DNA of 64,000 nucleotides from Candidatus Poriferisocius sp. (GCF_965219815.1 NZ_OZ244791.1:2092491-2156490); one strand, 5' to 3'. Counted from the first letter of the stretch, positions 45,348-64,000 are shown. Numbers and translations are program-made. The notes: generated by a model from the sequence alone, not told the origin.

Positions 45348-48300
45348 GTGGCCTGGATGGCTGCCCTGGGGTTCGACGACCTAACTGCCGGAAAACGGCT
45401 CTCGGGGGTGGTGGCTGACGGTGACGTGACTGTGGTTGCGCTCGACGTGCACGGCACCGGGTCGGCGACCTTGACCTATCGGTCGGCCACTGGAGGGCTC
45501 GGAGAGCGGATCATCACGCTGGACGACCTGGCCACCATCCAGGAGGTGTCCCAGCAAAGGTGGAGCTTCGACGCCGACGGTGCCGCATTTCGCCTGGCCT
45601 CTGAGGCTCGCCGCATGAAGTCGGCGCACTTGGCCGATCCCTATGCCGCGGTGGACACCTCCAACATCGAGCCCTACCCCCACCAGATCGACGCCGTCTA
45701 CAACCGGTTCCTGGAGCAACGTCCGCTCAAGTTCCTGCTGGCCGACGACCCAGGTGCCGGCAAAACCATCATGTCGGGGCTGTTGATCCGCGAGCTGATG
45801 CTGCGAGGCGATGTGGCCCGCTGTTTGATCGTCGCCCCCGGCAGCTTGGTGGAGCAATGGCAGGATGAGATGTGGGACAAGTTCGGCCTCAGTTTCGAGC
45901 TGATGTCGCGCTCAGCGGTCGAGGCGTCGCGCACCGGCAATCCGTTTCTGGAGAAGAACCTCTTGGTGGCCAGGGTCGACCAGCTGTCACGGGCCGAAGA
46001 CCTCATCGAGAAGCTCAAGCTGGCCGATTGGGACCTGGTGATCGTTGACGAGGCCCACAAGATGTCTGCTCACCTCTACGGCGATGAACTGCGCAAGACC
46101 AAGCGGTTCGAGCTGGGGGAGGTTCTAAGGGATCAAACTCGCCACTTCCTGCTGCTGTCGGCCACTCCCCACAACGGCAAGAACGAGGATTTTCTTGCCT
46201 TCATGACCCTCATCGACCCTGAGCGGTTCGCCGGACGGCTGCGCGACGACCAGATGCCCGAAACCGATGACGTGATGCGCCGACTTGTGAAGGAGAACCT
46301 GTGTACGTTCGAGGGTCGTCGCCTATTTCCCGAACGGACTGCCGAGAGCGTCAACTTCGAGCTGTCTGAGCCCGAGGCCGAGCTGTACGAAGCGGTCACC
46401 GACTACGTGCGCAATGGCATGGACCGTGCTAACCGAATGCAAGAGGAGGGGGATCGGCGACGAGGGATCATCTTCGGATTCGCCCTCGCCGCGCTCCAGC
46501 GACGCCTTGCGTCGTCACCGGCTGCCATCTACCACTCTCTGCGCCGCCGTCGAGATCGGCTAACCAATCAGGCTGCCGAACTCCGCCGCCTGAGTGCTGG
46601 CGGCAAACCTGTGTCGGTAGCGGACCTGCCCAGGGGAGTGCGATTTGCCGATCTTGTGGATTTCGACTTCGACAACTTCGATGATGTGGAGCTAGAAGAG
46701 CTTGAAGACCATGTGATCGACGCAACCACTGCTTCCTCCACCGCCGAAGAACTCGAAGCCGAGGTGGTTGAGCTAGAGGAACTCGTCAAACTAGCCGAGG
46801 CCGTACGAAGCAGCGGCGAAGACACCAAGTGGATACAACTGCGAGGCCTCCTGCGATCCGATCAATTCCGAGCTGGAAATGGTGAAGGCTCCGATGAAGG
46901 CAGCGCGCCATCGGGTCCTCGGAAGTTGATCGTGTTCTCTGAGCACAAGGACACGCTTGATTATGTGGCCGATCGGATCGCCGCTGAACTGGGCAATCCT
47001 GAGGCGGTGGCTGTCATCCACGGAGGAATCAAGCGCCATGACCGCCGAGCCATCCAAGACCGATTCCGTGTCGACCCCGCGGTGCGGGTGCTGGTGGCCA
47101 CCGACGCCGCTGGTGAGGGTGTCAACCTCCAAGTGGCCAACATGATGGTCAATTACGACCTGCCGTGGAACCCGAACCGAATCGAGCAGCGGTTCGGCCG
47201 CATCCACCGCATCGGTCAGCAGCGACCCTGCCGCATGTGGAACTTGATCGCCCACGAGACCAGGGAAGGGGTGGTGTTCACCCGACTGTTCGAAAAGATC
47301 GAGCAACAACGGGGCGTCTATGGCGACCAGGTGTACGACGTGCTCGGCGACTCGCACATCAACACTTCCCTCCAAGAACTGCTGCTCAAGGCCATTACCG
47401 CTGATGACGATCCTGCCCATCTCGAATACATGAATGAAGTGATCGAAAGCGACTACGGGCACCATCTGGTGGATGTGTTGAAACAGCGGGCCCTGGTCGG
47501 CGACCTTGCTGATCCCGCGGCCAACGACAAGATCCGCGAAGACATGGAGCGAGCCCGGGCCCGCAAGCTGCAACCGTGGTTCGTCCACGCATTCTTCTCC
47601 GAGGCTCTTCGCCGATACGGAGGGCGCATCGTGGGCCGAGAGCAGGGCCGGTTCGAGATAACGCGGATTCCGGCGGCGATCCGCTCTCTTGCCGACGCAG
47701 CACTCGGCCCGGTACACGACCGATACGAGCGGGTGACCTTCGACAAGGCCTGTATCCAGATCGACGGAGGCGACCGAGCCGAGCTGATTTCACCGGGCAC
47801 CCCGCTGCTCACCGCGGTCATCAACAAGGTGCTGGCCGATCACGAGCGCACGCTGTCGCGGGGTGCCACCCTGGTTGACCCCGAAGACCGGTCAACCAAT
47901 CCCCGGCTGCTGGTATACCTCGATCATTCCGTCACCGACGGGCGAGAGGTCCACGGCCACCGCCAAGTGGTGTCGAGGCGATTCCAGTACGTAGAGATCG
48001 ACCACCAAGGCAATGCCAAAAGCGCCGGAAACGAGCCCTACATCGGTTACGCCCCACTGGGTGAGGAAGATCGGGCGCTGCTCGACGGCCATCTCGACTT
48101 GGACTGGGCCGATCACACCGCCGAAGAGACCGCGAAGAGCTGGGCCATAGAGCATCTCTCCCAACCCCACTTCGAGGAGATCAACCGGGTGACCGAAGCT
48201 CGTGTCGACAAAGTCCGAGCGGCGGTGAGAGAACGCCTCGAAGCCGAGGTCCGCTACTGGGATTTGCGTGCTGAAGAGCTGAAAGCCCAGGAGCTCGCGG

Positions 48301-48893
48301 GCCAGAAACCCCGACTCAATTCGGGCCGTGCGAGGGCTCGGGCCGAGGATCTAGCGGCCAGGCTGGTTCGCCGCCGATTGGATCTAGACCAGGAGAGCGA
48401 CCTCCACAACAGCCCGCCCACCGTCGTCGGTGCGGCCATCATCGTCCCCCAAGGCCTCATCGACCATCTCCGAGGCATGCCGCCCGACCCCAAAGACACC
48501 GCCGACAAGATGGAGACCGACCGCCGAGCTGTTGCCGCCGTCCTCGAAGCCGAGCGGACCCTCGGCCGCATCCCCGAGGCCCAGTCTCACAGCAACCCCG
48601 GCTACGACGTGCTCTCCGTCGACCCCGATACCGGCACCCACTACTTCATCGAAGTCAAAGGCCATCTCCCCCGCACCACCGAAATCCACATCAGCGCCCA
48701 ACAGATCAGCAAAGCCAAATCCCTCCCCGACCGCTGGCGTCTAGCCATCGTCTCCGTCCCCGACGACCCCACCGAGCTCCCAACAGCCCACTACCTCATA
48801 GACCCCTTCACCGACTACACCCCCCACTTCGCCCAAACCGGCCTAGCCCTCAACGTCGCCGATCTCTTGGCCGTATCTGGCTCTCCGAGTTAA
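45348..48893 (+). CDS. SNF2-family helicase with C-terminal DUF3883 (restriction-endonuclease-like) domain
   Basis: Motif I DDPGAGKT, II VIVDEAHK, III LLLSATPHNG, V ATDAAGEGVNLQ, VI NPNRIEQRFGRIHRIGQ. C-terminus GYDVLSVDPDTGTHYFIEVKGH...RWRLAIV fits DUF3883. Confidence 0.85.
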   Translation: MAWMAALGFDDLTAGKRLSGVVADGDVTVVALDVHGTGSATLTYRSATGGLGERIITLDDLATIQEVSQQRWSFDADGAAFRLASEARRMKSAHLADPYAAVDTSNIEPYPHQIDAVYNRFLEQRPLKFLLADDPGAGKTIMSGLLIRELMLRGDVARCLIVAPGSLVEQWQDEMWDKFGLSFELMSRSAVEASRTGNPFLEKNLLVARVDQLSRAEDLIEKLKLADWDLVIVDEAHKMSAHLYGDELRKTKRFELGEVLRDQTRHFLLLSATPHNGKNEDFLAFMTLIDPERFAGRLRDDQMPETDDVMRRLVKENLCTFEGRRLFPERTAESVNFELSEPEAELYEAVTDYVRNGMDRANRMQEEGDRRRGIIFGFALAALQRRLASSPAAIYHSLRRRRDRLTNQAAELRRLSAGGKPVSVADLPRGVRFADLVDFDFDNFDDVELEELEDHVIDATTASSTAEELEAEVVELEELVKLAEAVRSSGEDTKWIQLRGLLRSDQFRAGNGEGSDEGSAPSGPRKLIVFSEHKDTLDYVADRIAAELGNPEAVAVIHGGIKRHDRRAIQDRFRVDPAVRVLVATDAAGEGVNLQVANMMVNYDLPWNPNRIEQRFGRIHRIGQQRPCRMWNLIAHETREGVVFTRLFEKIEQQRGVYGDQVYDVLGDSHINTSLQELLLKAITADDDPAHLEYMNEVIESDYGHHLVDVLKQRALVGDLADPAANDKIREDMERARARKLQPWFVHAFFSEALRRYGGRIVGREQGRFEITRIPAAIRSLADAALGPVHDRYERVTFDKACIQIDGGDRAELISPGTPLLTAVINKVLADHERTLSRGATLVDPEDRSTNPRLLVYLDHSVTDGREVHGHRQVVSRRFQYVEIDHQGNAKSAGNEPYIGYAPLGEEDRALLDGHLDLDWADHTAEETAKSWAIEHLSQPHFEEINRVTEARVDKVRAAVRERLEAEVRYWDLRAEELKAQELAGQKPRLNSGRARARAEDLAARLVRRRLDLDQESDLHNSPPTVVGAAIIVPQGLIDHLRGMPPDPKDTADKMETDRRAVAAVLEAERTLGRIPEAQSHSNPGYDVLSVDPDTGTHYFIEVKGHLPRTTEIHISAQQISKAKSLPDRWRLAIVSVPDDPTELPTAHYLIDPFTDYTPHFAQTGLALNVADLLAVSGSPS

Positions 48894-48994
48894 TGCGCGG
48901 AGTACCAATGGTGCATTCGTGATGGCATGAATACTTGCTACAAGAGTCAGTATGCGTGATACGGTAAAGACATCCCAAAGGAGGGGACCAGCTC

Positions 48995-49211: not shown

Positions 49212-49640
49212 ATGACCGTTCAGTGCCTCGGCCTTGAAGATTTCCTGTTGATCGCAGAATCGGTCACGGGGACAGAGGTCGAGGCACTGGCGCGTCTACC
49301 TGGATTGCACAGGGCCGAGCATGCTCTCTCAGCTCCAACCGCAGGAATTGAAGGATTCGAATACTATCCGAGCTTTGCCGAGAAGGCGGCGGCGATGGCC
49401 TTTCAGCTAATCAAAGGTCATCCACTAGTCGATGGCAACAAACGCGTTGGGTATCTGTGTCTTATTGAATTTGCAAGGAGAAACGGATATGAGTGGGTGG
49501 CACCGCCAGATGATGGGCCAGATAGGAATGAGACAGTAAAGGTCATTGAGGGGGTTGCCGCAGGCTCAGTTAGCCGAGAAGAGCTAATCGACTGGATCGA
49601 GCAGCGACTAGTGGAACCGGAAGTTAGCCATGAAGGGTGA
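49212..49640 (+). CDS. doc: Fic/Doc family toxin (death-on-curing)
   Basis: Fic motif variant HPLVDGNKRVG. ATG at 49212 is 1 nt after the antitoxin stop. Confidence 0.8.
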   Translation: MTVQCLGLEDFLLIAESVTGTEVEALARLPGLHRAEHALSAPTAGIEGFEYYPSFAEKAAAMAFQLIKGHPLVDGNKRVGYLCLIEFARRNGYEWVAPPDDGPDRNETVKVIEGVAAGSVSREELIDWIEQRLVEPEVSHEG

Positions 49641-50595
49641 AATGACCCTTCCATGGGAAAGTGGTGAAAACCCTCGGGGTACGGCGGATCTAGAGTTGCC
49701 ACTAATCTATATCGCTTCACCGCTAACTCGTGCCAATGATTCGGATGAAGAACGCAGACTTGTGGGTTTTGAGGTAGACAAAATAGTTAATATAGTTCAA
49801 GATCCGCATTTCGATGGCGGGCCACTAAAATACCGAACCCATGCCCCAGCAGTTCTGAGTGCCCCTTGGATTAGCAACGCAAGTTCTTGGCAGATATTCC
49901 GAAAGAACACACTTTTGGTCCTAGCGGAAGCAGATGCTTTGATTGTATTGTCACTACAAGGAGGAAGTGCTGGAACTGGACAAGAAATCGAAATGGCAAC
50001 TCAACGTGGTCTGCCAATCTTGTACTTGGTACCTCAGGGGGATTCGATTAGTCGACAGATCGAGGGTAACCCACTTATTGATTGTCAAAAATATGATCAA
50101 CCTGACGAGTTGGATCAAGTGATCAGAGCCTTCATTAATCGGAACAAGTCCCAAATCGATCACGGCCCCACCAGGAGACGTAACGCCACCATTCTTTACT
50201 CTGCTCTGCAAGAGGAACTTCGCGAGAAATGGGTTACATTGAGCGGAGAAGGCCAGAATGAAATAACAGCTCAGCTTGGTCTGGAACCCGCCTATCTTGA
50301 TCATTACCTATCAAGTCCACTACTGGTTGCAACGATGGCGCACAATCAACTGCTTATGATCGGCATAGCACTAGGAGTCGATGTACCAGGATTCTTCACA
50401 ACTTTTACCAGAACTCTGTCGATGCAGGAGATAAGCGCCCTAGTGTCTGCCAAGGAGGAGTATGAATGGTCTGACGAACATTCGGAGAGATTACTTCAGC
50501 GTGCGGAACGACTGAAAGTTTCAGATGGAGTGCGAAGGCTTTTGCTAAACAGTCCAGCTGATTGGAAGCGGCTGAAGGAGACACTCGGATTGTGA
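49630..50595 (+). CDS. fusion protein: N-terminal SLOG/nucleoside 2-deoxyribosyltransferase-like Rossmannoid domain + C-terminal HTH (XRE-like) region
   Basis: IYIASPLT...EADALIVLSLQGGSAGTGQEIEMATQRGLPILYL matches the NDT/LOG-type GGxGTxxE signature. The C-terminal ITAQLGLEPAYLDHYLS looks like an HTH. Markedly AT-rich gene. Confidence 0.45.
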   Translation: MKGEMTLPWESGENPRGTADLELPLIYIASPLTRANDSDEERRLVGFEVDKIVNIVQDPHFDGGPLKYRTHAPAVLSAPWISNASSWQIFRKNTLLVLAEADALIVLSLQGGSAGTGQEIEMATQRGLPILYLVPQGDSISRQIEGNPLIDCQKYDQPDELDQVIRAFINRNKSQIDHGPTRRRNATILYSALQEELREKWVTLSGEGQNEITAQLGLEPAYLDHYLSSPLLVATMAHNQLLMIGIALGVDVPGFFTTFTRTLSMQEISALVSAKEEYEWSDEHSERLLQRAERLKVSDGVRRLLLNSPADWKRLKETLGL

Positions 50596-51308
50596 ATACT
50601 CTTGCTGAGAAGCTTGCAGCTAGGGTGTCCAAAGAATTTGGTCTCGGAGACCCTCCGATTGATGTGGAGAGGCTGGCATGTAAACTTGGTGTGGATAGTA
50701 TCAGCGACCGACCTCTGCTCGAAGATGGACGCTTGGAAAGGTACGAAGGTTCTACAAGTATTCTAGTGCGGTCAGATATCTCACCAAAGAGACGTCGTTT
50801 TACGATAGCTCATGAATTGGGACATCTCTTGTTGATGGCACCGAATTCTGAGTTCGTGGCAGCAAGGCATATTATTGGCAAAGATGTGGAAGAGAGATTT
50901 TGCGAAGATTTTGCTGGGGCGTTGTTATTACCTGCCTGGTGGGTCAAGGAGACTATCCACGATCGGCCCCGTACCCTTCACACACTGCGGGTTATCGCTG
51001 GTAGGTCAAATACATCGTTAGCTGCGTCTTGTGTGCGGATGAAGAAGATATCAGGGTGGCAGAGCACCCTATTGTGTTGGAATCGCCATGAGAGCAATTG
51101 GCACTTTCAATGGGCAGCAGGTCTGCCAAACGGCTTTGAAGGTAGAATTCGTTCTTCAGATCACACTTCTGCCATCTTGAATTCTCATGATATGAGTGGA
51201 GATGTCGACATAGAGTTGCCCCTTAGGATTAGTGGAACTGAGAAGAGGGTTCCGGCCCAGGTGTCTGTGCGTCATGGTTCGGCTATCGCCCTCGCGGTCC
51301 TCATCTAG
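50592..51308 (+). CDS. ImmA/IrrE-family zinc metallopeptidase
   Basis: HEXXH (TIAHELGHLLL) with downstream EERFCEDFAGALLLP typical of the ImmA/IrrE (COG2856) family. The GTG at 50592 overlaps the upstream TGA (GTGA); the alternative start at 50562 is also possible. Confidence 0.75.
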   Translation: MNTLAEKLAARVSKEFGLGDPPIDVERLACKLGVDSISDRPLLEDGRLERYEGSTSILVRSDISPKRRRFTIAHELGHLLLMAPNSEFVAARHIIGKDVEERFCEDFAGALLLPAWWVKETIHDRPRTLHTLRVIAGRSNTSLAASCVRMKKISGWQSTLLCWNRHESNWHFQWAAGLPNGFEGRIRSSDHTSAILNSHDMSGDVDIELPLRISGTEKRVPAQVSVRHGSAIALAVLI

Positions 51309-51585
51309 TTGCCGCCAACTCCTGAGCTGGCCTCAGAACCGTGCAGCAGTCGGCATGCTGACGGGGCAAAAGGAGGAGTTGGAGCAACTTCCACCCATGT
51401 AGTATCGGGCCGTCAGGCCGCCCTGTTTCGAGGTACCCGGGCACGGAAAGGGCGCAGCAAATCTGAACCGAAAAAATCGAGCCTTCGCGTGATTGTGGGG
51501 TTGGGGGTGGTTGAGGGTCCCTGAGTTGGGGTCGAGGCCCTGCTGGAGTTGGTGATGTTCATGTCGCCTATCCCAGAGGGCCCCG

Positions 51586-52579
51586 ATGAGTTCAGATGTT
51601 ATGCGGGTGCGGTTGCACTTGCGCCGGGTTCGCGTGCTGGCGGTGGTTTCGGACACGCCGTTGGAGTTGGTTGTGGAGGTGGAGTCGGCGGTGCGCCGGC
51701 CCCGGTGCCCGGGCTGCGGGGCCGCGTGCTCGGGGGTCCATGATGTGCGGGTCAAAGAGGTCCGCGACCTGGAGGTGTCGGGCCGGGCGGTGACGCTGTT
51801 GTGGAAGAGGCGCAGGCTGGTGTGCGGTGGATGCGACAGGCGGTTTGTGGAGGGCCACCCGGCGTTCGAGGGCCGCCTGACGGCCCGTCTGGCCCGCCGG
51901 CTGGTCGCTGATGCCAGGGCCATGCCGATCCGACAGGTGGCCCGCCGCCACGGCGTCGGCTGGCATCAGGTCAACGACTTGGTGCGGGCATGGGCCGGGG
52001 TGGTCGCCGAGCGGCGAAGAAGCCTGCGGTGCCGGGTGCTTTTGGTCGATGAGACCTCGATCCGCAAGCGCCACCGCTACGTGACCGTGATCGTCAACGC
52101 GGACACCGGCCAGACCCTGGCGATGGTCCCGCACCGCAGCACAGCCGCCCTGGCAGGGTTTTTGGCGCAGCAGGGGCACAAATGGTGCAAACAGGTCAAA
52201 GTCGTGGTCACCGACGGGTCCCCCGCCTACAAAGCGGCCATCGACGCCCGCTTGGGCCACGCCCGCCATGTCCTGGACCGGTTCCACGTCATCAGATGGT
52301 TCTCCTCGGGGCTTGTCGCGGTGCGCCGCGACGTCCAGCGCCGACAGCGCCAGGGAGGCAAACCGGCGTTCGATCCCGAGGTGTTCAAAGCCCGGTTCAT
52401 GCTGCTGCGCCGACAAGACGCCCTCACCACAGCAGACCAGGACCGCCTCGACGGCCTCTTCGAAGCCCACCCCCGCCTCCGCACCGCCTGGCAGGCGCTT
52501 CAACAGCTCCGGGGCATCTACGAAGCCCAAGACCACGACCAAGCCCTCGAAGCCCTCAACCGGCTCGGCGACCTCTACC
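51586..52579 (+). pseudogene. ISL3 transposase, N-terminal 331 codons (interrupted)
   Basis: Zn-finger CPGCG...CGGC, VLLVDETSIRKRHRYVTVIVN. The reading frame is broken at 52579 by the IS3 insertion. Confidence 0.8.
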
Positions 52580-52595
52580 TGAACCTCCCCGGGTT

Positions 52596-53839
<1,244 letters not shown>

Positions 53840-53889
53840 GGCTCCATCCTCCCAAGGAACAGAGCCTGCGCAATACCCGGGGAGGTTCA

Positions 53890-54095
53890 ACCTCACCGGA
53901 GAGATCCCCGAGTTCCACGACACCGTGAACGCCATCATCGAATGGTCCGACGAGATCCTCGACTGGCACCACACCGGCCAGCCCTCAAACGGCCGCATCG
54001 AGGGGACCAACAACCTCCTCCAAGTCCTAAGACGCACCGCCCACGGCTTCACCAACCCCGCCAACTTCCAAGCCAGAGGCCTACTGATAACATGA
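53890..54095 (+). pseudogene. ISL3 transposase, C-terminal 67 codons
   Basis: [18 protein letters not shown]...[27 protein letters not shown] continues the frame broken at 52579. Confidence 0.8.
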
Positions 54096-54193
54096 CCCCA
54101 CACCGACACCAGCAACCCCAAACCCACACTTTCGCGCAGTGAGGTTCTGAGGTTCCCCCCTTTTCGTGGAGACATGCTCTATAAGGAGGAGCT

Positions 54194-54478
54194 ATGTCCA
54201 GACCGCGAAGAGATTATGACCGGGAGTTCCGTGATGGGGCTGTCCGGATCGTCAAGGAGACCGGCCGGCCGGTGGCCCACGTCGCCCGGGAGCTCGGCGT
54301 CAACGAGGGCACGCTCGGGAATTGGGTGCGCCGGGACCGAGACGAGCGCTCGGGCGGGCTGAGCGGCGACGAGCGGGCCGAGCTGGCCCGGCTGCGCCGC
54401 CGGGTCGCCGAGCTGGAGATGGAGCGTGATGTGCTCAAACGATCCGTGGTCCTTTGGGTCAACGAGGCGACGCGGTGA
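54194..54478 (+). CDS. IS3-family transposase OrfA
   Basis: 94 aa, identical to 61709..61993. Confidence 0.85.
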
Positions 54479-55074
54479 CCGCAGGGTTCATCGCGGCCCA
54501 AAGGACCGACCACGGTGTGCCTCACTCTGTGGCTTGCAGAGCGCTGGGCGTGGCGGAATCCACGTTCTACAAGCACCTCGACCGGCCGCTGACCGATCGG
54601 CAGCGGCGTCGCCGGGCGCTGGACGCCGAGGTGAAAAAGGCGTTCGACGAATCGGACGGCACCTACGGGTCGCCCAGGGTGCGCGCCCGGCTGCGACGCG
54701 ATGGCCTGTCGGTGTCGAAGAAGACGGTGGAGGCCTCGATGGCCCGCCAGGGCCTGTGCGCCCGCCCCAAACGCAAAAAGGGCCTCACCAGCCCCGACAG
54801 CTCCCATGCGGCCCCCACAGACCTTCTGGGCCGCGACTTCAGCGCGACAGGGGTCAACCAGAAATGGTGCGGCGACTTCAAACAGGTTCCCACCGCCGAG
54901 GGCCCGGTGTTCCTCGCGACCGTCGAGGACCTCTACTCCAGGCGCATGGTCGGCTTCGCCACCTCCGACCGGTACCCGACCGCCGAGCTGGCCAAACAGG
55001 CCATCAACACCGCGGTCGCCACCAGAGGCGGCAACGTCAAAGGCGTCATCTTCCACTCGGACAAGGGATCGCAA
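54454..55074 (+). pseudogene. IS3-family OrfB, N-terminal part (broken by IS30)
   Basis: Identical to copy 2 up to ...[10 protein letters not shown], then runs into the IS30 inverted repeat. Confidence 0.85.
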
Positions 55075-56528
55075 GCCGGATTCAATCGGTCGTCGCAACA
55101 CCGGGTTGTTGAGCGCAGTGTAGGTGTTCGTTGAGGGTTTCGGCGGGTGTTTTCCAGCCGAGTACTTTGCGGGGTCTGTTGTTGAGCGTGGCGGCGACTG
55201 CTTCGATCTCTTCTGCTGACCATCGCGAGAGGTCGGTGCCCTTGGGGAAGTATTGGCGCAGCAGGCCGTTGGTGTTCTCGTTGGTTCCGCGCTGCCAGGG
55301 GCTCTTCGGGTCGGCGAAGTAGACGGGGATGTCGGTGGCGGCGGTGAACTCGGCGTGGGCGGAGAGCTCCTTGCCCCGGTCCCAGGTCAAAGAGCGTTGG
55401 ATCTGTTCGGGGAGGGTGGACATCGAGCGTGACAGTGCGTTCTTCATGGTGACCGCTCCGTAGCCGGCGAGGGCCGGCCCGTTCTTGGTTCTGGGCTGTT
55501 TGCCGTAGCCGGGCTCTCGTGGCAGGTGGATCAGCATCGTGAACCGGGTGGTGCGCTCGACGAGGGTGCCGATGGCGGAGCGCTTGAGGCCGATCACCAG
55601 GTCGCCTTCCCAGTGTCCGGGGACTGCCCGGTCGGCGGCCTCGGCGGGGCGTTCGCTGATCAACACGTCGTCGGTGACGTGGTCCCAGGCCCGGCGCCCC
55701 ACTCGGGCTCGGGGGACCCGCAGGGCGCGCCCGGTCCGCAGGCACGCGACCAGGTCGCGTTTGAGGGCGCCGCGGCCCTCGACGTAGAGAGCCTGATAGA
55801 TGGCTTCGTGGCTGATCCGCATGGACCCATCATGGGGGAAGTCGACCGGCAGGCGCCGTGCGATCTGCTCGGGGCTCCAGGCCTGCACCCAGCGCCGGTC
55901 GCCGCGGTGGGGCTTGTTCTTGCCGTTCCACTGAGGGCCCTCGGGGCCCAGCACCCGCCCATCGGGCGCCTGGACGCGCCCCGAGAGGCGGTCCTGCACA
56001 TAGCATCGGAGCCGGTCGTTGACAGCCAGCTTCGCAGGCTTGGGGCGACGGGCGCGGCGCTCGGCATGCCACTGGGCGATCGTCGCTTTGTACTCGAGCC
56101 GAAACGTCCTCGTCGACGCGTTCCGGCGCAACTCCCGCGAGACCGTCGACGCAGACCGGCCGAGCCTCCGGGCTATCTCACGCACCCCGGCGCCCTGAGC
56201 ACGCCACAAGGCGATCTCCTCTCGCTCGGCAAACGACAGATAGCGGCCCGACACCGCCGGGGGAAGGAAAGGGTTCACACCGCCAGCGTGCCGGAACCAC
56301 CGGTACCCGACCGGCGCCGACACCCCGGCCGAAGCCGCCGCGTCGCCAGTCTTTTCCCCACCGGCGACAGCCTCCCAAAACCTCACCCGATCCCGCCGCC
56401 ACGCCACCGTCGGCCGCCCCGGCGACGGAACCTGCCCCGATACAGCCGAACCTCCCGCTGCCGCTCCACCATCGTCACCATCAAACACCTCCATCGTCAA
56501 GGTGTTGCGACGACCGATTGAATCCGGC
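55075..56528 (-). mobile_element. IS30-family insertion sequence, 1,454 bp
   Basis: Perfect 28-bp terminal IRs GCCGGATTCAATCGGTCGTCGCAACACC. 3-bp target duplication CAA (55072-74 / 56529-31). Confidence 0.9.
55082..56494 (-). CDS. IS30-family transposase
   Basis: 470 aa from MEVFDGDD. HTH REIARRLGRSASTVSRELRRN, catalytic region PGHWEGDLV. The track ORF extends beyond the IS end and was trimmed. Confidence 0.85.
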   Translation of the reverse strand: MEVFDGDDGGAAAGGSAVSGQVPSPGRPTVAWRRDRVRFWEAVAGGEKTGDAAASAGVSAPVGYRWFRHAGGVNPFLPPAVSGRYLSFAEREEIALWRAQGAGVREIARRLGRSASTVSRELRRNASTRTFRLEYKATIAQWHAERRARRPKPAKLAVNDRLRCYVQDRLSGRVQAPDGRVLGPEGPQWNGKNKPHRGDRRWVQAWSPEQIARRLPVDFPHDGSMRISHEAIYQALYVEGRGALKRDLVACLRTGRALRVPRARVGRRAWDHVTDDVLISERPAEAADRAVPGHWEGDLVIGLKRSAIGTLVERTTRFTMLIHLPREPGYGKQPRTKNGPALAGYGAVTMKNALSRSMSTLPEQIQRSLTWDRGKELSAHAEFTAATDIPVYFADPKSPWQRGTNENTNGLLRQYFPKGTDLSRWSAEEIEAVAATLNNRPRKVLGWKTPAETLNEHLHCAQQPGVATTD

Positions 56529-56531
56529 CAA

Positions 56532-56828
56532 TACACCTCAGAAGCCTTCGCCGCCGCCTGCCGGCGGCTCGGCATCTCACGGTCCACCGGAAGAACCGGC
56601 AACGCGCTGGACAACGCGCCGGCCGAGTCGTTCTTCTCCACGCTCACCCACGAACTCATCTCACGCCGGGCCTGGACCACCAGAGCCCGGGCCCGACGAG
56701 AAATCACCCTATGGGTCCACACCTGGTACAACCAGCACCGCCTCCACTCCGCAATCGGAATGACCAGCCCCGTAGAATACGAACAGGCCCACAACCCCGA
56801 CCCTCAAAAACAAACTCTCCACGATTAG
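56532..56828 (+). pseudogene. IS3-family OrfB, C-terminal part
   Basis: [38 protein letters not shown]... continues OrfB after the IS30. Differs from copy 2 by a few substitutions (T versus Q in FSTL[T/Q]HE). Confidence 0.85.
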
Positions 56829-56858
56829 GGGGGAAGCTCAGTTCCCCCCGTTGTCCGG

Positions 56859-57765
56859 TCACTTGGTTTGTGCGGCTTGTTCTAGTGGTTGTCGGTGGTG
56901 GTCCTCCCATTCTGTGGGGGTGTGGTAGTCGAGGGTGGAGTGGATTCTGCGGGTGTTGTAGCGGCCGATCCAGGCGAAGATCTCGCGGCGGGCCTGGTTG
57001 CGGGTCGCGAAGCGGGTTTGTGTGACGAGCTCGCGTTTGAGGGATGCGAAGAACGACCCCCATATCATGCTCACAGTCCCAGCAGTTCCCGACTCGCCCG
57101 GCGGATTGGCGCATCTGGTGGCGGGCCAGCGCGGAGGCGTGTTGCCCCGAGAGGTATTGCGGGCCGCGGTCGGAGTGGAATATCACCCCGGCGGTGCGGT
57201 GGCCTCTGGACGCGGCGGCGGTGTCCAGGGCGTCGACGACGAGCTCTGAGCGGGCGTGGTCGGCCATGGAGTAGCCGATGAGCCTCCGCGAGCCGACGTC
57301 GAGCACGACGGCGAGGTGCAGCCAGCCCTGTCCGGTGGGGACATAGGTGATGTCGCTGGCCCACACCCGATCCGGCCGGCCGGGGCGGAACCGCCGGCGC
57401 ACCAGGTCCTCGGGCGCCGATCCGGAGGGGCCTGAGCCCTTGAGGCGGGGCTTGCGCCGCTTGTGGATGCCGCAGATGCCGTTGCGTCGCATGAGCCTCT
57501 CGACGCGCTTGCGGTTGGCCCTGCGGCCCTGCCGGCGCAGCTGTGCGGTGACCCCGGGCGACCCGTAGGCGCCGCCCGACTCGGCGTGGACGGCGCGTAT
57601 AGCGCCCACCAGCTCGGCGTCGGCCAGCTCCCTCGGGCTCGGGCCCGCCTTTTGGCGCACGGACCAGTCGTAGAACGCCTGGCGGCTCACACCGGCCGCA
57701 TCGCACGCTGGTTTCGTCGGGAACCCCTCGGCCCTCCGGGCAGCCACCCACAAATAGCGGGTCAC
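56859..57765 (-). pseudogene. IS3-family OrfB with internal frame break (near 57070)
   Basis: DDE core WASDITYV / HSDRGPQYLS is in one frame. The C-terminal SFFASLKRELV...YNTRRIHSTLDY is in another (track ORFs 56704..57966 and 56859..57074). Confidence 0.7.
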
Positions 57766-57778
57766 TCTCCCAACTCCT

Positions 57779-58078
57779 TCACCCAGAAGGCCGTCGCTCG
57801 CATGGCAGCTCACACTCCATCCGCAGCTTCGAGTTCTCCCGGCGCAACCGCACCAGCTCCGAGCGCTCCCCAGTCGCCAGACCCGGCCTGTCGCCCCGGT
57901 CGATGCGGGCCTGGCGCACCCAATTGCCCAAATTGGACTCGCCGATCCCCAGATCGCGCGCCACATGGGCCACCGGCCGGTCGCCGTCCAACACCAACGC
58001 CACAGCGTCAGCCTTGAACTCCTTGCTGAAACGCCGCCTGGTCCTGCCCGGCGGCCTGCCCCTTTCCATCAAAGACAT
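57779..58078 (-). pseudogene. IS3-family OrfA, probably frame-shifted near its 3' end
   Basis: RRFSKEFKADAVALV...LGNWVRQA...LRRENSKLRME is normal. The expected ...RATAFWVKE tail is readable only in another frame around 57790-57815. Confidence 0.55.
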
Positions 58079-58254
58079 AGTTACCCCCTAATCGAGGTGA
58101 CCGGCCAAAGGGGGGATACTCAAACGGGTATGGGTATACCAAAGCGTGGATTGACAAGCTCGTACGTCATCTAAGCGACCCAAGGAAGTACGAAGAGGTG
58201 GTCGGGTCCCCTCTAGCCCAGCAGTGATCTGTTTTCCTACGGGAGCCTGCCTTA

Positions 58255-58974
58255 TTGCCGCTGTCTGCCTTTGGGAGTGGGGACGAGGGCCCTACTCATT
58301 CTCACCTTGCTAGGACCCTCTGCGATACTGGCGGCGTGTTGGACGAGGTGACGCTGGCGCGTGAGCTCATCAGGATCGTGTCTAGCGATTCGGGGCTGCC
58401 CAGGTCCGCTCGCAGCCGGGCGGCTGGCCTTCAGGCGTTGGCCACCTCCCAGGCGTCGCTCGTCTTCGATGATCTTGAGACGCTGAGGCGGCAGGTCATA
58501 TCGGCTCTCCCGATGCAGCAGCCCACCTGCGACTACGCCCGGTGTGTCTCGGTCGAAGCATTCTGGTTGCACAACTTGCGGGCGGAACGCCGTGCCGCTT
58601 TTTTGACCCCGAGGAACTATCTGCACTGGCTGAGATTTCAGGGAGATCCAGCGGCTGCTGCCCTCAACGACATCTCGACAGACGACATCGTGCCAGCACC
58701 CCACTCCTGGCTGGTGCCAGCGGCCAGCATTGCAGGATTGAGCGGTCGCGGCCTGAGAGCACGTCTGAAGCTCAGCGGCAGCGAACCTCCCTACCTTGTG
58801 TTCGTATTTCCAGTAGTCGATTTGAAGGCTGCTGGTGTGGAGGTGCGTGAACCCCGCGGATTGGATGCAGTGCCCGCTCGCCATGTGCAGTGGTCGCCAG
58901 GCGATGTGCCCGACGAGCGGATCGACCAAGACATCCCGTATGCCGCCCTGGGAGGAGTAGAATGGCGACCATAG
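58255..58974 (+). CDS. hypothetical protein (first gene of three-gene operon)
   Basis: Coding-like third-position GC, no recognisable domain. Start uncertain (TTG 58255 or GTG 58336). 13-nt overlap with the next gene. Confidence 0.45.
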   Translation: MPLSAFGSGDEGPTHSHLARTLCDTGGVLDEVTLARELIRIVSSDSGLPRSARSRAAGLQALATSQASLVFDDLETLRRQVISALPMQQPTCDYARCVSVEAFWLHNLRAERRAAFLTPRNYLHWLRFQGDPAAAALNDISTDDIVPAPHSWLVPAASIAGLSGRGLRARLKLSGSEPPYLVFVFPVVDLKAAGVEVREPRGLDAVPARHVQWSPGDVPDERIDQDIPYAALGGVEWRP

Positions 58975-60407
58975 AGCAGCCCTCGCCCGCCCTGTACAGC
59001 GCGGTGCTCCACATTTTGGGCAACACCGATTCCCGCTCGCGGTCAATGTCGACCACGATGTCCGATCTGGTTGAGCACCTCACCGCCGAGCAGGCTGCCT
59101 GCCTGCCGCAGGTATTCGGCAAGGTGCTCCCGCTGTTGAGGAGAGACCCTGAACGGTTGCAGTTCGCGGCGAACCTCGCCGTTTCCTTCGACTTCTACGA
59201 GGCCGCCGCTGAGATGGCAGAGATCGCGTTGGACCAAGACGATCGCGATCTGAGGCTTGCCGCGGCCATGCTGTGCGGGAATCCGGCAGTCGACGCCCCG
59301 GTTCGCCGGCGAGTCGCCGAGGCGGTGGCCGATGATCCCTATGGCCGGATACGGATGGATCCCAGCACAGTGCCAGGCACAGAAGACGAACAGCTCTTGT
59401 ATTCGCAGTGTTGGCCCGGCGTCCGCACCGAATCCTCGTCCTTCCCGCAGACCCCGGTGGCCGTGCTGGACGGGGGCTTCCCGGCCGACGATGTCCTTCG
59501 CTTCGCCGTCCACCTCGACAAAGCAGGGGCGTCGGTACGCCGCCTGTCACCTGGGGCGGAGGTCCCACATTGGTTTGGCACCCAGACGGTGCTTGTATGT
59601 CAGCCGCCTACCAGAAGCCGGGTGCTGAGCAGATACCCGGGTTTCCCCGAGCGCCAGATACTCGTCGAGCCCATGCCGACAGAAGGTCGGGAGACCGACA
59701 GGCTGCTCCGCCAGATCAACGGTGTATTGTCCGGACCCCACCGGCTTGATCTTGCTGCGGTCGGGTCGGAGGTTGAGCATGCCGTCTGGGCTCCCGATGT
59801 ATTCACAGCAGGGGTCTACCCCACCAAGGAAGCGGCTTTCTTGGCCGGGACCAAACCGTCCTGGCTCAACCGCCTGGGCACGAAAGGCATCTTGCGCCCA
59901 CGCCAGGCCAGAGTGCTGCTCTGGACGTTTCGAGATGTGGTTGCCGTCCGAACCTGGGTCTACTTGAACTCAGAGTCGAATCGAAGAGTCTCGAGCAAGG
60001 TCATCGGCTCTCTAGCTCGGTTTGCAGGCGATGCCAAGGCGGTTCGTCTCGGCGCCACATCTACGGGGAAGGTGCTGGTGAACAAGGGCGACGGATGGGA
60101 CGATGTGGAGAGCGGTCAAAGAGTTATGGGCCTTCACATCACCGACATCGACGAGGTATTCCGACCCTTCGACTTTGGTGGTGGCACCACCCTCGGTCTG
60201 CTCCAAGCCAGCGACAACACTAAACTGCACCCGACAGTCCTCAACGGGACATACCACCTTGACGGGCACCGAATCAGTGCTAAGGCCTTGGCGAGCGTCG
60301 ACACCCGTTGTCGGCGCGAAGTCATCGAGAAGGCCTATCCCGAGTTGGAGGGCAAATCGTTCGAGGACACGGTGTCAGTCGGCATGCAACTCTTGAGCGC
60401 CGCCTGA
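58962..60407 (+). CDS. large protein with C-terminal HTH + DUF433-like (antitoxin-like) module and an unknown 300-aa N-terminal region
   Basis: Start taken at MATIEQ (ATG 58962). The C-terminal PTVLNGTYHLDGHRISAKALA...IEKAYPELEGKSFEDTVSVGMQLL fits the DUF433 pattern. The preceding YPTKEAAFLAGTKPSWLNRLGTKGIL looks like an HTH. Confidence 0.5.
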   Translation: MATIEQPSPALYSAVLHILGNTDSRSRSMSTTMSDLVEHLTAEQAACLPQVFGKVLPLLRRDPERLQFAANLAVSFDFYEAAAEMAEIALDQDDRDLRLAAAMLCGNPAVDAPVRRRVAEAVADDPYGRIRMDPSTVPGTEDEQLLYSQCWPGVRTESSSFPQTPVAVLDGGFPADDVLRFAVHLDKAGASVRRLSPGAEVPHWFGTQTVLVCQPPTRSRVLSRYPGFPERQILVEPMPTEGRETDRLLRQINGVLSGPHRLDLAAVGSEVEHAVWAPDVFTAGVYPTKEAAFLAGTKPSWLNRLGTKGILRPRQARVLLWTFRDVVAVRTWVYLNSESNRRVSSKVIGSLARFAGDAKAVRLGATSTGKVLVNKGDGWDDVESGQRVMGLHITDIDEVFRPFDFGGGTTLGLLQASDNTKLHPTVLNGTYHLDGHRISAKALASVDTRCRREVIEKAYPELEGKSFEDTVSVGMQLLSAA

Positions 60408-60409: not shown

Positions 60410-60754
60410 GTGCGGCTGCTCTACGACGCAGTTCTGCCGCAGAGCCTCTCTCTTGAAGCCCCAGCGGAGGTGGAGTTCCAGCGATGGGACGGCTCTGATG
60501 TGTCAGACGCCGACCTCGTCCGCGCATCAGAGGAGAAAGGATGTCGCGGCGTGATTCTCTGGGGCCGCGACTCACTCCAACAAGCGGACTTGCGGGATAC
60601 AGCCCAACAAGCCGGCGTGGCCCTCGTAGCAGTTGAGGCCGACAATCCCGTTGAAGCCAAGCAGCGAATCTTGAAGAATCTGTCGGCGTTGCGCCGAAAG
60701 CTGACGGAACATGACTGCCTACTCGTGCTCGCCAACGAGGTCCGCCCCGTTTGA
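60410..60754 (+). CDS. DUF5615/Mut7-C-like PIN-related small protein (toxin-like)
   Basis: GTG is 2 nt after the upstream stop. VRLLYDAVLPQSL...SDADLVRASEEKGCRGVILWGRD resembles the DUF5615 pattern that usually partners DUF433. Confidence 0.45.
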   Translation: MRLLYDAVLPQSLSLEAPAEVEFQRWDGSDVSDADLVRASEEKGCRGVILWGRDSLQQADLRDTAQQAGVALVAVEADNPVEAKQRILKNLSALRRKLTEHDCLLVLANEVRPV

Positions 60755-60857
60755 GGGCCGACAGATCCTTGAATGCGAGGTTGTCTCGTATTGCGCATTA
60801 GAGGAGAGTCGGCCCATTGACGTGTCTAGGCGACCTCTTCACGGATAGGGGGCAAGG

Positions 60858-61184
60858 TCATTTGGGGTGGCTGCTGGTGGGAAGGCTCCGGGTGTCGATC
60901 AGAGGTGCGTAGTGCTGTTGGGCGGCCTGGGCGGTGATTCCGAGGATTTGGGCGATGCGGGGCCAAGGAGTTCCGTCGGCTCTGGCGTTTGACACGGCTT
61001 CGGTGATCTGCGATTCGTTCCTGGGGTGGGCGGCAGCCGCGCACCGGAGATAGAACTCGGCGACTGGAACTTCTTCGGCCTCTGACCAGTCGAAGGTCTC
61101 GCACCAATCCGCGACAGCATCCCAGTTGCCGCTTGCCTCGGCATCGGTGATGAGTTCTCGAAGGGATCGGGGCATGTCATTCAC
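60858..61184 (-). CDS. small HTH protein, antitoxin-like
   Basis: 108 aa. The C-terminal WPRIAQILGITAQAAQQHY is HTH-like. ATGA overlap with the upstream 78-aa gene. Confidence 0.4.
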   Translation of the reverse strand: MNDMPRSLRELITDAEASGNWDAVADWCETFDWSEAEEVPVAEFYLRCAAAAHPRNESQITEAVSNARADGTPWPRIAQILGITAQAAQQHYAPLIDTRSLPTSSHPK

Positions 61185-61417
61185 CTCAGAAAGTGGGCTC
61201 GTGCTGGCATCGCGTGAACGATTCTAGGGTCTTCTCCCCTTGTCGTTATTCCCACTTCCAGCATGCGACCGCCGTAATCGGCGCCAATGAGCATCAAGAT
61301 ACCGTCCCGATGGAAGATGCGGATCGCGTTCCGACATGCATGGCGGGCATCGTGTTCGGCGATTCCATGCCGGCGAGCGCTGTCGGCGAACTCCAGCCGA
61401 GAGAAATCTAAATACAT
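61181..61417 (-). CDS. small toxin-like protein (BrnT-like pattern), hypothetical
   Basis: 78 aa. RRHGIAEHDARHA...LIGADYGGRMLEVGI...RIVHAMPAR loosely follows BrnT-type toxins. Toxin-first gene order. Confidence 0.3.
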   Translation of the reverse strand: MYLDFSRLEFADSARRHGIAEHDARHACRNAIRIFHRDGILMLIGADYGGRMLEVGITTRGEDPRIVHAMPARAHFLR

Positions 61418-61420
61418 TGA

Positions 61421-61440: not shown

Positions 61441-61556
61441 GAACGCGACTACCAAAGATTGGATCCAATGCATGAAACGCCCGGAGGTGCTGGTGCTTGG
61501 CGGTTGTGAGGGAGGGTGTGAGGCGGAGTCGGGGGCTTCGGGTAGCGTGGCTCGTT

Positions 61557-61662
61557 GTGAGTGAGGGGGGCTATCGGCCGAAGCTGATTGAAGTGGCGTT
61601 GCCTTTGGCGGCGATTAATGCGGAGGCTGCGCGGGAGAAGTCGATTCGGCATGGGCATCCTT
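61557..61662 (+). pseudogene. DUF1156/COG1743-type DNA methylase, 5' fragment
   Basis: ...[30 protein letters not shown] is the conserved DUF1156 N-terminus. Cut by the IS3 at 61663. Start codon uncertain (GTG 61557 or upstream TTG 61497). Confidence 0.75.
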
Positions 61663-61708
61663 TGAGGTTCCCCCCTTTTCGTGGAGACATGCTCTATAAG
61701 GAGGAGCT

Positions 61709-61993
61709 ATGTCCAGACCGCGAAGAGATTATGACCGGGAGTTCCGTGATGGGGCTGTCCGGATCGTCAAGGAGACCGGCCGGCCGGTGGCCCACGTCGC
61801 CCGGGAGCTCGGCGTCAACGAGGGCACGCTCGGGAATTGGGTGCGCCGGGACCGAGACGAGCGCTCGGGCGGGCTGAGCGGCGACGAGCGGGCCGAGCTG
61901 GCCCGGCTGCGCCGCCGGGTCGCCGAGCTGGAGATGGAGCGTGATGTGCTCAAACGATCCGTGGTCCTTTGGGTCAACGAGGCGACGCGGTGA
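61709..61993 (+). CDS. IS3-family transposase OrfA
   Basis: [15 protein letters not shown]...LGNWVRRD...[18 protein letters not shown]. Confidence 0.85.
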
Positions 61994-62886
61994 CCGCAGG
62001 GTTCATCGCGGCCCAAAGGACCGACCACGGTGTGCCTCACTCTGTGGCTTGCAGAGCGCTGGGCGTGGCGGAATCCACGTTCTACAAGCACCTCGACCGG
62101 CCGCTGACCGATCGGCAGCGGCGTCGCCGGGCGCTGGACGCCGAGGTGAAAAAGGCGTTCGACGAATCGGACGGCACCTACGGGTCGCCCAGGGTGCGCG
62201 CCCGGCTGCGACGCGATGGCCTGTCGGTGTCGAAGAAGACGGTGGAGGCCTCGATGGCCCGCCAGGGCCTGTGCGCCCGCCCCAAACGCAAAAAGGGCCT
62301 CACCAGCCCCGACAGCTCCCATGCGGCCCCCACAGACCTTCTGGGCCGCGACTTCAGCGCGACAGGGGTCAACCAGAAATGGTGCGGCGACTTCAAACAG
62401 GTTCCCACCGCCGAGGGCCCGGTGTTCCTCGCGACCGTCGAGGACCTCTACTCCAGGCGCATGGTCGGCTTCGCCACCTCCGACCGGTACCCGACCGCCG
62501 AGCTGGCCAAACAGGCCATCAACACCGCGGTCGCCACCAGAGGCGGCAACGTCAAAGGCGTCATCTTCCACTCGGACAAGGGATCGCAATACACCTCAGA
62601 AGCCTTCGCCGCCGCCTGCCGGCGGCTCGGCATCTCACGGTCCACCGGAAGAACCGGCAACGCGCTGGACAACGCGCCGGCCGAGTCGTTCTTCTCCACC
62701 CTCCAACACGAGCTCATCTCACGCCGAGCCTGGACCACCAGAGCCCGGGCCCGACGAGAAATCACCCTATGGGTCCACACCTGGTACAACCAGCACCGCC
62801 TCCACTCCGCAATCGGAATGACCAGCCCCGTAGAATACGAACAGGCCCACAACCCCGACCCTCAAAAACAAACTCTCCACGATTAG
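61969..62886 (+). CDS. IS3-family transposase OrfB (DDE), -1 frame relative to OrfA
   Basis: [33 protein letters not shown]. Uninterrupted here. Confidence 0.85.
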
Positions 62887-62898
62887 GGGGGAAGCTCA

Positions 62899-64000
62899 CT
62901 TCTACGTTGCACTTGTGGTGGGCTCGGCGGCCGTTGGCGGCGGCTCGGGCGGTGATTTGGGCGTCATTGGTGGACGATCCGTCGGGGGATGAGTCGCTGA
63001 CGCCGGATGAGCAGGAGGCGGAGCGGCAACGGTTGTTTGGCATCTTGGAGCGGCTGGTGAAGTGGGAGAACTCCAATGATCCTGAGGTGCTGGCTGAGGC
63101 TCGGGCGGAGATCGACCGCTGTTTTCCGGACGGGGCGCCGCCGATCCTCGATCCGTTTGCGGGGGGCGGGGCCATTCCGCTGGAGGCGCAGCGGCTGGGT
63201 TTGAAGGCGTTGGCGGGCGACTTGAATCCGGTGGCGGTGCTGATCAACAAGGCGATGATCGAGATACCACCCCGCTTTGCCGGGATGCCGCCGGTGCATC
63301 CGGATATTGACAAGACCCTCACGACGTGGGAACGGGCGCAGGGGTTGGCGGCGGACGTGTGGGCTTATGGGCGGTGGATGCGCGACGAGGCCGAGCGGCG
63401 GATCGGACACCTGTACCCGGATGCGACGGGTCCGAACGGGGAGAAGCTGACACCGATTGCCTGGATATGGGCGAGAACGGTGGAGTCGCCTGATCCGAGT
63501 TGGTCGGGGCATGTGCCGTTGGTGGCCTCGTGGACGCTGGCCAAGCGGCCGGGCAAGCCCAAGGTGTGGATTGAGCCGGTCGTGGATCGGGCTGCGCAGA
63601 CGATCAGTTACGAGATACGTGAAGGCGGCGAGCCTCTGTATGAGCGAACCTGTAGCGGTGGCGATGGAGTGTGTCTTGCGACAGGTTCAGCAATTCCGGC
63701 CACGTACATAAAGGGAGAAAGTCGCGCAGGGAGGATGGGTCAGGAACTGATCGCTGTTGTGGCTGAGGGGGACTTTGGAAGAGCGTACTGTTCGCCTAGA
63801 GCAACAGATAGAGCGGCGGCGATCGCGGAGCTACCAGTTTGGAAGCCAGAGGAATCTCTACCTCAAAAGGGTCTTGGCTTTCGAGTTCAAGCCTACGGCC
63901 TAGACGAGTGGTGGAAGCTATTCGTCTCAAGACAGCTGATGGCCCTCACCACCTTTTCAGATCTACTCGAAGATGTGGCAAGGATGGTTGAATCGGACGC
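62899..64000 (+). pseudogene. DUF1156/COG1743-type DNA methylase, 3' portion (runs off window)
   Basis: My translation from 62901 is open for 366 codons: STLHLWWARRPLAAARAV...DPFAGGGAIPLEAQRLGLKALAGDLNPVAVLINKAMIEIPPRFAG (SAM motif I). Confidence 0.8.

Follow-up and report, generated by a model that had tools for sequence, protein, structure and literature searches.

A probable single Hma locus in Candidatus Poriferisocius sp., its hmaA and hmaB split by cargo and its hmaB broken by an insertion sequence

Can a helicase gene and a methylase gene that lie more than 12 kb apart, with accessory and mobile DNA between them, be parts of one defence system? The question is raised by a 64,000-nt chromosomal stretch of Candidatus Poriferisocius sp., one of the sponge-associated Acidimicrobiia (GCF_965219815.1 NZ_OZ244791.1:2092491-2156490; hereafter the window), in which an SNF2 helicase-nuclease gene is followed on the same strand by a DUF1156 methylase gene that runs past the window's end. 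An initial, sequence-only reading of this DNA took the two genes for parts of one poorly characterised locus, in line with a recurrent neighbourhood of COG1743/DUF1156 methylase, DUF499 ATPase and SNF2 helicase flagged by surveys of defence islands. That background was correct: this neighbourhood is Hma (helicase-methylase-ATPase; HmaA-HmaB-HmaC), an anti-phage system defined by Payne et al. 2021 (PMC8565338). The accompanying statement that it has no worked-out mechanism is out of date, Hma being named and partly characterised and its embedding of other genes published. We conclude, with a probability of about 0.92, that the region is one chromosomal Hma system, in which hmaA and hmaB are split by cargo and hmaB is broken by an insertion sequence (IS). 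As a whole the locus is unremarkable, a case of known behaviour in a known system and riddled with insertion sequences, and such novelty as it may offer is confined to an unannotated three-gene cassette, P1-P2-P3, within the gap.

The helicase-nuclease gene, described by the sequence-only reading as an intact 1,181-aa SNF2 helicase with a C-terminal DUF3883 domain, is borne out by Pfam, by the PADLOC HmaA model and by its motifs. Pfam places SNF2-rel_dom at aa 123-295, Helicase_C at 524-623 and NOV_C (PF13020, formerly DUF3883) at 1059-1138, and the PADLOC HmaA model aligns over its full length with the open reading frame (ORF; E=0, 1313.9 bits, profile positions 4-1169 of 1176). All helicase motifs are present (I, GAGKT, 136-140; II, DEAH, 234; III, SAT, 271; VI, RIHRIGQ, 618-624), as are the nuclease residues D1087 and E1102-x-K1104. 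A close point of reference is the HmaA of coral-associated Halomonas meridiana, which alone protects E. coli from T4 (Liu et al. 2024, PMC11232893) and requires motif VI and the NOV_C nickase (D1084, E1104, K1106, E1121) to do so (PMC11232893). The two proteins share the Snf2-rel, Helicase_C and NOV_C architecture with conserved motif I, motif VI and D...ExK residues, but differ in the D-to-ExK spacing (15 residues in the window's HmaA, 20 in that of H. meridiana). From this analysis, hmaA is predicted to encode what is probably still a stand-alone effector.

The methylase gene does begin, with a GTG codon, at the position of about 61557 that had been proposed for it, and it is interrupted shortly afterwards. 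Its codons 7-35 (61575-61661) match DUF1156 profile positions 1-24 and PADLOC HmaB positions 10-36, and the hidden Markov model searches which the sequence-only reading had called for matched the corresponding PADLOC model for both helicase and methylase. Beyond the interruption, codons 36-401 (62901-63998) form a single ungapped tblastn segment without stop or frameshift when queried with the HmaB of a related locus (L027; related loci carry L numbers), and Pfam recognises in it DUF1156 positions 24-72 followed by a D12-class N6-adenine methyltransferase (MethyltransfD12). The window's HmaB is 78% identical to that of L027 and 78-92% identical across relatives.

The interrupting element is 1,236 bp long, ends in TG..CA terminal inverted repeats (TGAGGTTCCCCCCTTTTCGTGGAGA and TGAGCTTCCCCCCTAATCGTGGAGA) and is flanked by a CTT target duplication (61660-61662 and 62899-62901), the split falling between codons 35 and 36. 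Excising it together with one CTT gives ...CAT CCT TCT ACG TTG..., which reads H-P-S-T-L, a conserved HmaB sequence. Overlapping helix-turn-helix (HTH) orfA and rve DDE orfB frames, the TG...CA repeats and the 3-bp duplication assign the element to the IS3 family, and comparable actinobacterial elements carry an IS3 family transposase annotation. A second copy of this element (IS3-B), at 54148-56840, is ~99.5% identical to the one in hmaB, apart from an IS30-like element inserted into it. Because the two copies are nearly identical and the duplication is intact, the insertion looks recent; hmaB was disrupted by a single, clean transposition, probably of recent date. The earlier claim of a disrupted methylase beside an intact helicase-nuclease gene thus stands.

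The relation between the two genes was examined in a scan for HmaA orthologues, one genome per species, which yielded 79 loci (46-90% identity), 63 of them assessable for hmaB position; HmaB and HmaC were placed in all orthologous loci by tblastn. Nearly all hosts are sponge-associated Acidimicrobiia, e.g. Candidatus Poriferisocius, Poriferisodalis and Aldehydirespirator. A same-strand hmaB lies 3' of hmaA in 48 of the 63 loci, with a median gap of 4.1 kb: it is adjacent in 14 (-4 to 463 nt), in several of which the hmaA stop overlaps the hmaB start, and it lies behind 1.3-9.8 kb of cargo in 34 (1.3-3.5 kb in nine, 4.1-9.8 kb in 25). In 12 further loci no hmaB was found within 10 kb downstream, and in three hmaBC is upstream of hmaA. 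Wherever room allows, HmaC follows HmaB, and in relatives (e.g. L027, L084) it is a HEPN_Swt1-DUF499 fusion. The HmaB proteins closest to the window's fragment are those of L003 (92%) and L002 (90%), whose HmaA proteins, too, share 87-89% identity with that of the window; the identities of HmaA and HmaB to those of the window are correlated over 44 loci (Spearman 0.56, p=9e-5); and a 301-aa SDR gene upstream of hmaA is common to the window, L003 and L005. Since the closest HmaB proteins come from loci whose HmaA is also among the closest, the identities of the two correlate and the upstream SDR synteny is shared, hmaA and hmaB are co-inherited parts of one locus and their separation is secondary. 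The sequence-only reading, which had proposed one system parted by accreted cargo, would have been contradicted by helicases that never neighbour DUF1156 genes; with hmaA and hmaB neighbours in 48 of 63 loci, and with both PADLOC models matching, its proposal holds.

What separates the two genes in the window is a gap of 12,663 nt (48894-61556) with nine non-IS genes and five insertion sequences, 52% of it a single IS nest (Table 1). The sequence-only inventory of this gap (two toxin-antitoxin-like pairs, a low-GC two-gene module, five insertion sequences and an orphan three-gene operon) was accurate except in the word orphan, since the same cassette recurs between hmaA and hmaB in at least ten distinct loci.

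Table 1. Features of the Hma region, in coordinates of the window
Feature	Position	Strand	Evidence
hmaA, SNF2 helicase with C-terminal NOV_C/DUF3883 PD-(D/E)xK nuclease, intact, 1181 aa	45348..48893	+	Pfam, PADLOC, motifs
Ribbon-helix-helix (RHH)/RelB-CopG-like antitoxin, 71 aa	48995..49210	+	NCBIfam RelB antitoxin; PHROG CopG/Arc repressor
Doc (Fic/DOC family) toxin, 149 aa	49191..49640	+	Pfam Fic; TIGR01550 DOC_P1 50 bits; PADLOC candidates PDC-S23/PDC-M59B
321-aa protein, low GC, weak nucleoside 2-deoxyribosyltransferase-like N-terminal region	49630..50595	+	phrog_355 E=2e-6, aa 23-148; DUF4406 weak
M78/IrrE-type metallopeptidase, CapP-like, 248 aa, low GC	50562..51308	+	Pfam Peptidase_M78; PADLOC capP E=1.6e-25
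ISL3-family element, split by IS3-A	51483..54139	+	transposase N part 51586-52647, C part within 53034-54095; terminal repeats
IS3-family element A (IS3-A), inside ISL3	52580..53889	-	orfB 52596-53516 (rve/HTH_21), orfA within 53513-54175; duplication ACC
IS3-family element B (IS3-B) copy 1, split by IS30-like element	54148..56840	+	100%/98% identical to hmaB copy; duplication GTTC
IS30-like element	55075..56528	-	HTH_38 and rve; perfect 28-bp inverted repeats; duplication CAA
IS3-family element C (IS3-C)	56841..58100	-	rve/HTH_21 and HTH_Tnp_1 ORFs; end sequences
P1, conserved core ~208 aa, no family	58255..58974	+	64-77% aa identity in 7 orthologous gaps
P2, 481 aa: helical N domain, alpha/beta domain, MerR/GlnR-like HTH, DUF433-like C terminus	58962..60407	+	homologues, AlphaFold 2 (AF2) model, fold match
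P3, 114 aa, no family	60410..60754	+	called as 114-aa gene on Logan contig L080; conserved 68-82%
Toxin-antitoxin-like pair: 78-aa toxin-like protein (61181-61417) and 108-aa HTH protein (60858-61184)	60858..61417	-	phrog_17063 E=3.7e-7; phrog_686 E=5e-8
hmaB 5' end, from the GTG start through codon 35, plus one base of codon 36	61557..61662	+	DUF1156 N-terminal motif
IS3-B copy 2, in hmaB	61663..62898	+	orfA 61709-61993 HTH; orfB 61969-62886 rve/HTH_21
hmaB continuation, codons 36 to ~401, rest of DUF1156 and N6-adenine methyltransferase core	62899..64000	+	tblastn, Pfam; leaves window

The cassette, P1-P2-P3, is found as a 2.5-kb segment at 70-77% nucleotide identity and in the same orientation in the gaps of L004, L006, L007, L009, L018, L065 and L074. 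A minus-strand reading of the operon was rejected, the plus-strand frames being better conserved at the protein level. More distant P2 homologues (50-58% identity) occupy the same hmaA-hmaB gap in L081-83/86/87, L084/85 and L091/92. In L090, L093 and L094, by contrast, the cassette has no hma gene within 10 kb and adjoins housekeeping genes together with an AAA_14/DUF4143 ATPase or HsdM; these loci show that the cassette is a module in its own right and that its preference for Hma, though strong, is not exclusive. It is also present in at least four of the 12 loci without a downstream hmaB; elsewhere it precedes hmaB.

Searches with P1, P2 and P3 returned no Pfam, NCBIfam or PADLOC family and no sequence match in the PDB; P3 may bear some likeness to a PIN/DUF5615 domain. 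P1 has 94 homologue clusters, none of them annotated, and P2 has 105, a few of which carry PF04255 (DUF433). AF2 models of the two proteins (predicted local distance difference test scores of 82 for P1 and 82 for P2) gave no significant full-length match in fold searches. The P2 model has a local match to a GlnR-DNA fold, limited to the MerR/GlnR-type HTH (probability 0.99), and the P1 model has weak but mutually consistent matches (E 0.26-3) to Tpt1/KptA, DarT1 and pertussis-like toxin subunits (PltA). As all of the latter belong to the ADP-ribosyltransferase superfamily, the P1 model weakly hints at an ADP-ribosyltransferase fold, which we treat as a lead and not as a finding.

Two relatives suggest how the cassette may have come to lie where it does. 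In L084 (9171-14957) P1 is joined in frame to a copy of the hmaB leader and codons 1-55, with P2 and P3 behind it, and this hmaB'-P1-P2-P3 unit stands in two tandem copies, with a period of 2,893 bp, ahead of an intact hmaB; in L004 (18674-22059) an hmaB remnant lies 5' of P1. These fusion repeats and the remnant suggest, at the level of sequence, recombination at the hmaB 5' end. Separately, the insertion in the window's hmaB (codons 35/36) falls in the same short 5' stretch as the recombination signature of L084 and L004. It is conceivable, though we consider it rather unlikely, that P1-P2-P3 is an undescribed three-gene defence or toxin-antitoxin-like system, with P1 as an effector of ADP-ribosyltransferase fold, P2 as a MerR-HTH/DUF433 sensor or regulator and P3 as a small partner, which preferentially colonises the hmaB 5' end by duplicating the leader and ~55 codons. 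If this were true, its leader-duplicating recombination would be a concrete mechanism for gene embedding in Hma.

A somewhat less likely proposal is that the cassette, perhaps with the neighbouring toxin-like/HTH pair, is a functional accessory of this lineage of Hma, for instance one that regulates or senses hmaBC expression. Its same-strand position between hmaA and hmaB (the window, L004, L006, L007, L009, L018, L065, L074, L081, L084, L092), kept across 50-91% P2 identity and often directly upstream of hmaB, would accord with such a role, as would the MerR-like HTH of P2 and the in-frame fusion of P1 to the hmaB leader and first 55 codons in L084. However, only ~8 of the 79 hmaA loci have the cassette, its copies in L090, L093 and L094 sit without hma genes within 10 kb beside housekeeping and other defence-type genes, and the cassettes that Hma loci take up have mostly proved to be defence systems in their own right (bioRxiv 10.1101/2024.01.29.577857). 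The argument of "guilt by embedding" marks out this conserved, unannotated cassette as one worth testing.

The remaining non-IS genes of the gap fall at its two ends. Next to hmaA are four low-GC genes (48995-51308; RHH, Doc, the 321-aa protein and the M78 peptidase), which may form one module, because one homologue of the 321-aa protein (P0215, 467 aa) carries a fused Fic domain; the four-gene arrangement was found in none of the 79 related loci. At the hmaB end, the toxin-like protein of the minus-strand pair matches BrnT weakly, and the pair recurs beside hma genes in L007 (17124-17666), L026 (4803-5134), where it sits between hmaB and hmaC, and L006.

Between them, the IS nest (51483-58100) is 6.6 kb of unbroken IS DNA that can be written as ISL3[IS3-A] abutting IS3-C[IS3-B[IS30]]. 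The ISL3 transposase is in two ORFs that match the DDE_Tnp_ISL3 profile at 2-173 and 182-239; IS3-A has inverted repeats of 37 nt and an ALIL frameshift pseudoknot on the minus strand (53439-53552; Rfam RF01497, 97 bits); and the last 8 nt of IS3-C lie at 54140-54147, on the far side of element B. Counting the copy in hmaB, six insertion sequences of five types, all with recognisable target duplications, are found in 11.4 kb (51483-58100 and 61663-62898), and no further copies of them were found elsewhere in the 64-kb window.

The corresponding gaps of relatives hold a variety of bona fide defence systems. SIR2-APAZ with a short prokaryotic Argonaute (pAgo) is found in L034, L050, L067, L016 and L021, a class II pAgo in L002, an AbiL-like ATPase with RloB and a type II restriction-modification pair in L003, and a UvrD-like helicase in L012. 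Avs2 is confirmed on the opposite strand in L005, and L004 and L057 have reverse-strand ORFs that resemble it by size and position only. Given this varied cargo, the hmaA/hmaB junction is a hotspot for defence genes and not a general dump.

The size of the window's gap also prompts the question of whether hmaA and hmaB were ever one operon, or are instead unrelated, or remnants of two systems within one defence island. The 12.7-kb separation with mobile DNA in between is what one would expect in that case; moreover, some related genomes have two Hma loci (L002+L003, L015+L048), and L055 has a second hmaB upstream of hmaA, such that rearrangement between copies is conceivable. Nevertheless, we regard this explanation as very improbable: the two genes are in canonical order on one strand, the window's HmaB is nearest to the HmaB of the loci with the nearest HmaA, gap sizes in the 48 orthologous loci grade continuously between 0 and 9.8 kb, and the window's gap without the IS nest is ~6 kb, which is typical for the clade. 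Least probable of all is an origin of the helicase in DISARM (DrmD) or type-3 BREX (BrxHII), suggested by its lower-scoring matches (DrmD, 394 bits in PADLOC and 375 in NCBIfam; BrxHII, 316) and by a 2026 paper arguing for deep homology with the type-3 BREX helicase (PMC12839542), and rejected on scores (HmaA model 1314 bits over the full length; NCBIfam DISARM_DrmD 375 bits against a cut-off of 610) and on missing partner genes, no DrmA/B/C, PglZ or BrxC having been found in the window or in relatives' flanks, while the partner methylase has DUF1156 and relatives have DUF499. The Snf2 core of DrmD and BrxHII is homologous to that of the window's HmaA, but both lack the C-terminal NOV_C and keep company with other genes, and their scores are far lower than that of the HmaA model, as is that of ZorD (75 bits).

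Several points do weigh against a single Hma system. The window stops inside hmaB and hmaC is not seen; 12 relatives have no hmaB within 10 kb, and some hmaA genes may be truly solitary; and as regards expression and methylation, the locus is known here from sequence alone. In addition, the locus breaks the PADLOC system rule (a curation rule of Payne 2024), which takes three intact genes on one strand with at most three embedded genes per gap between neighbours: its gap contains nine non-IS genes besides the five insertion sequences, and its hmaB is a pseudogene. As orthologous loci form the 0-9.8 kb continuum, we consider the failed synteny rule a matter of annotation, not of homology.

Set beside the published Hma systems, the single locus that we favour is familiar in most respects. 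Its HmaA and HmaB fit the PADLOC models and have the same order and strand as in the Hma of Payne et al., with extra genes between hmaA and hmaB. Embedded genes were reported in 931 of 1,485 Hma systems (62.7%; Payne et al. 2024, bioRxiv 10.1101/2024.01.29.577857); 22.8% of the embedded genes are known defences and 3.1% mobility genes (bioRxiv 10.1101/2024.01.29.577857), and seven of nine embedded candidates tested were active (bioRxiv 10.1101/2024.01.29.577857). Unlike the loci of that survey, with at most three embedded genes per junction, the window has a far larger gap, just over half of it IS DNA, and an hmaB pseudogene. Sponge-symbiont Acidimicrobiia, known mostly from metagenome-assembled genomes (MAGs), are likely under-represented in this RefSeq-based survey. 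In another survey, 85% of hmaA loci had hmaB, 81% had hmaC and 66.5% had insertions (PMC11232893). The H. meridiana locus likewise has defence genes between hmaA and hmaB (there Septu), an IS3 transposase nearby and a host associated with a marine invertebrate; it differs from the window in its cargo and in that the window's methylase is disrupted and its HmaA orthologue known by sequence alone.

More recently, Hma was renamed the Type-1 DUF499-centred BREX-related (BR) system (NAR 2026, PMC12839542), with its first sighting dated to HEPN and EVE analyses of 2013 and 2020, respectively (PMC12839542), and with a HEPN-DUF499 fusion described for 1,370 taxa (PMC12839542). The window shows no difference in kind from Type-1 BR, having the Snf2 helicase with a C-terminal PD-(D/E)xK nuclease and the DUF1156 N6-methyltransferase, with HEPN-DUF499 in relatives. 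The sequence-only reading had also looked to DUF3780-type genes downstream; DUF3780, however, marks the sister Type-2 BR system, in which the helicase bears an HKD nuclease (PMC12839542), and is not expected in this Type-1 locus. Type-2 membership was rejected, as the helicase has NOV_C rather than HKD/PLD and no protein scanned (window to nt 64000) matched DUF3780. No paper connecting MADS with Hma came up in a literature search, which matched plant MADS-box papers only.

On the reading favoured here, the ancestral layout is a tight hmaA-hmaB-hmaC operon in which stop codons overlap the next start, and its hmaA/hmaB junction is a known hotspot for the embedding of other defence and toxin-antitoxin modules; hmaC (a HEPN-DUF499 ATPase in relatives) should follow hmaB beyond the window. 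HmaA, an SNF2 translocase joined to a PD-(D/E)xK nickase, would be the effector that moves along DNA and nicks it, as was experimentally shown for a homologue. By homology, HmaB would mark self DNA by N6-adenine methylation, and HmaC would scan and license restriction, with its HEPN domain as a putative back-up RNase. In the published work, phage from HmaB-expressing cells were not protected (PMC11232893). The landing of IS3-B inactivated hmaB, with the presumed loss of methylase-dependent discrimination from this locus.

From this broken methylase the sequence-only reading had drawn that the helicase-nuclease is not an autonomous killer. The idea fits the finding that H. meridiana HmaA is by itself non-toxic in E. 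coli (PMC11232893), but the locus alone does not prove it: because the insertion looks recent and relatives often have two Hma loci, an intact hmaA beside a broken hmaB adds little weight on the question of auto-toxicity. Since related genomes often carry a second Hma locus, a second methylase could act in trans where one hmaB is broken. Two separate hmaA loci are found in several sponge-symbiont MAGs, sometimes on one contig (L002+L003, L015+L048, L036+L039, L008+L062, L028+L075). Gene order varies among L013, L026, L030 and L055, hmaB-hmaC being upstream of hmaA in three loci, and L055 has, besides its downstream hmaB, a further copy 5' of hmaA that is frameshifted.

The broader meaning lies in the published principle that Hma loci are landing pads for other immune genes, which is extended here to sponge-symbiont Acidimicrobiia: in this clade ~70% of the loci with a downstream hmaB are split, and Argonaute, Avs and Abi systems are among the fillers. 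In practical terms the gain is modest, consisting of a correct annotation of the locus and a natural hmaB knock-out beside an intact hmaA.

As for the surroundings, GC content is ~65% across the region and drops to 48-52% at 49.0-51.3 kb. The genes 5' of hmaA are housekeeping genes (the SDR, a SpoU methylase and a periplasmic binding protein); a search of 40-64 kb found no tRNA gene, and neither a tRNA nor an integrase marks an island boundary. Finally, in the first ~110 nt after the hmaA stop, most close relatives (L001, L003, L005, L006, L007, L009, L018, L034, L050, L057, L065, L067) have a conserved non-coding element directly behind hmaA, with a hairpin of the form GACCCGGCAC...CACCGGGTGGGT and, in some copies, a duplicated CCCTAGGTGAGC in the loop. 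Neither the window nor L002 has it, and in L002 the last ~6 hmaA codons differ as well. The element could act in termination or recombination, or be a small repeat.

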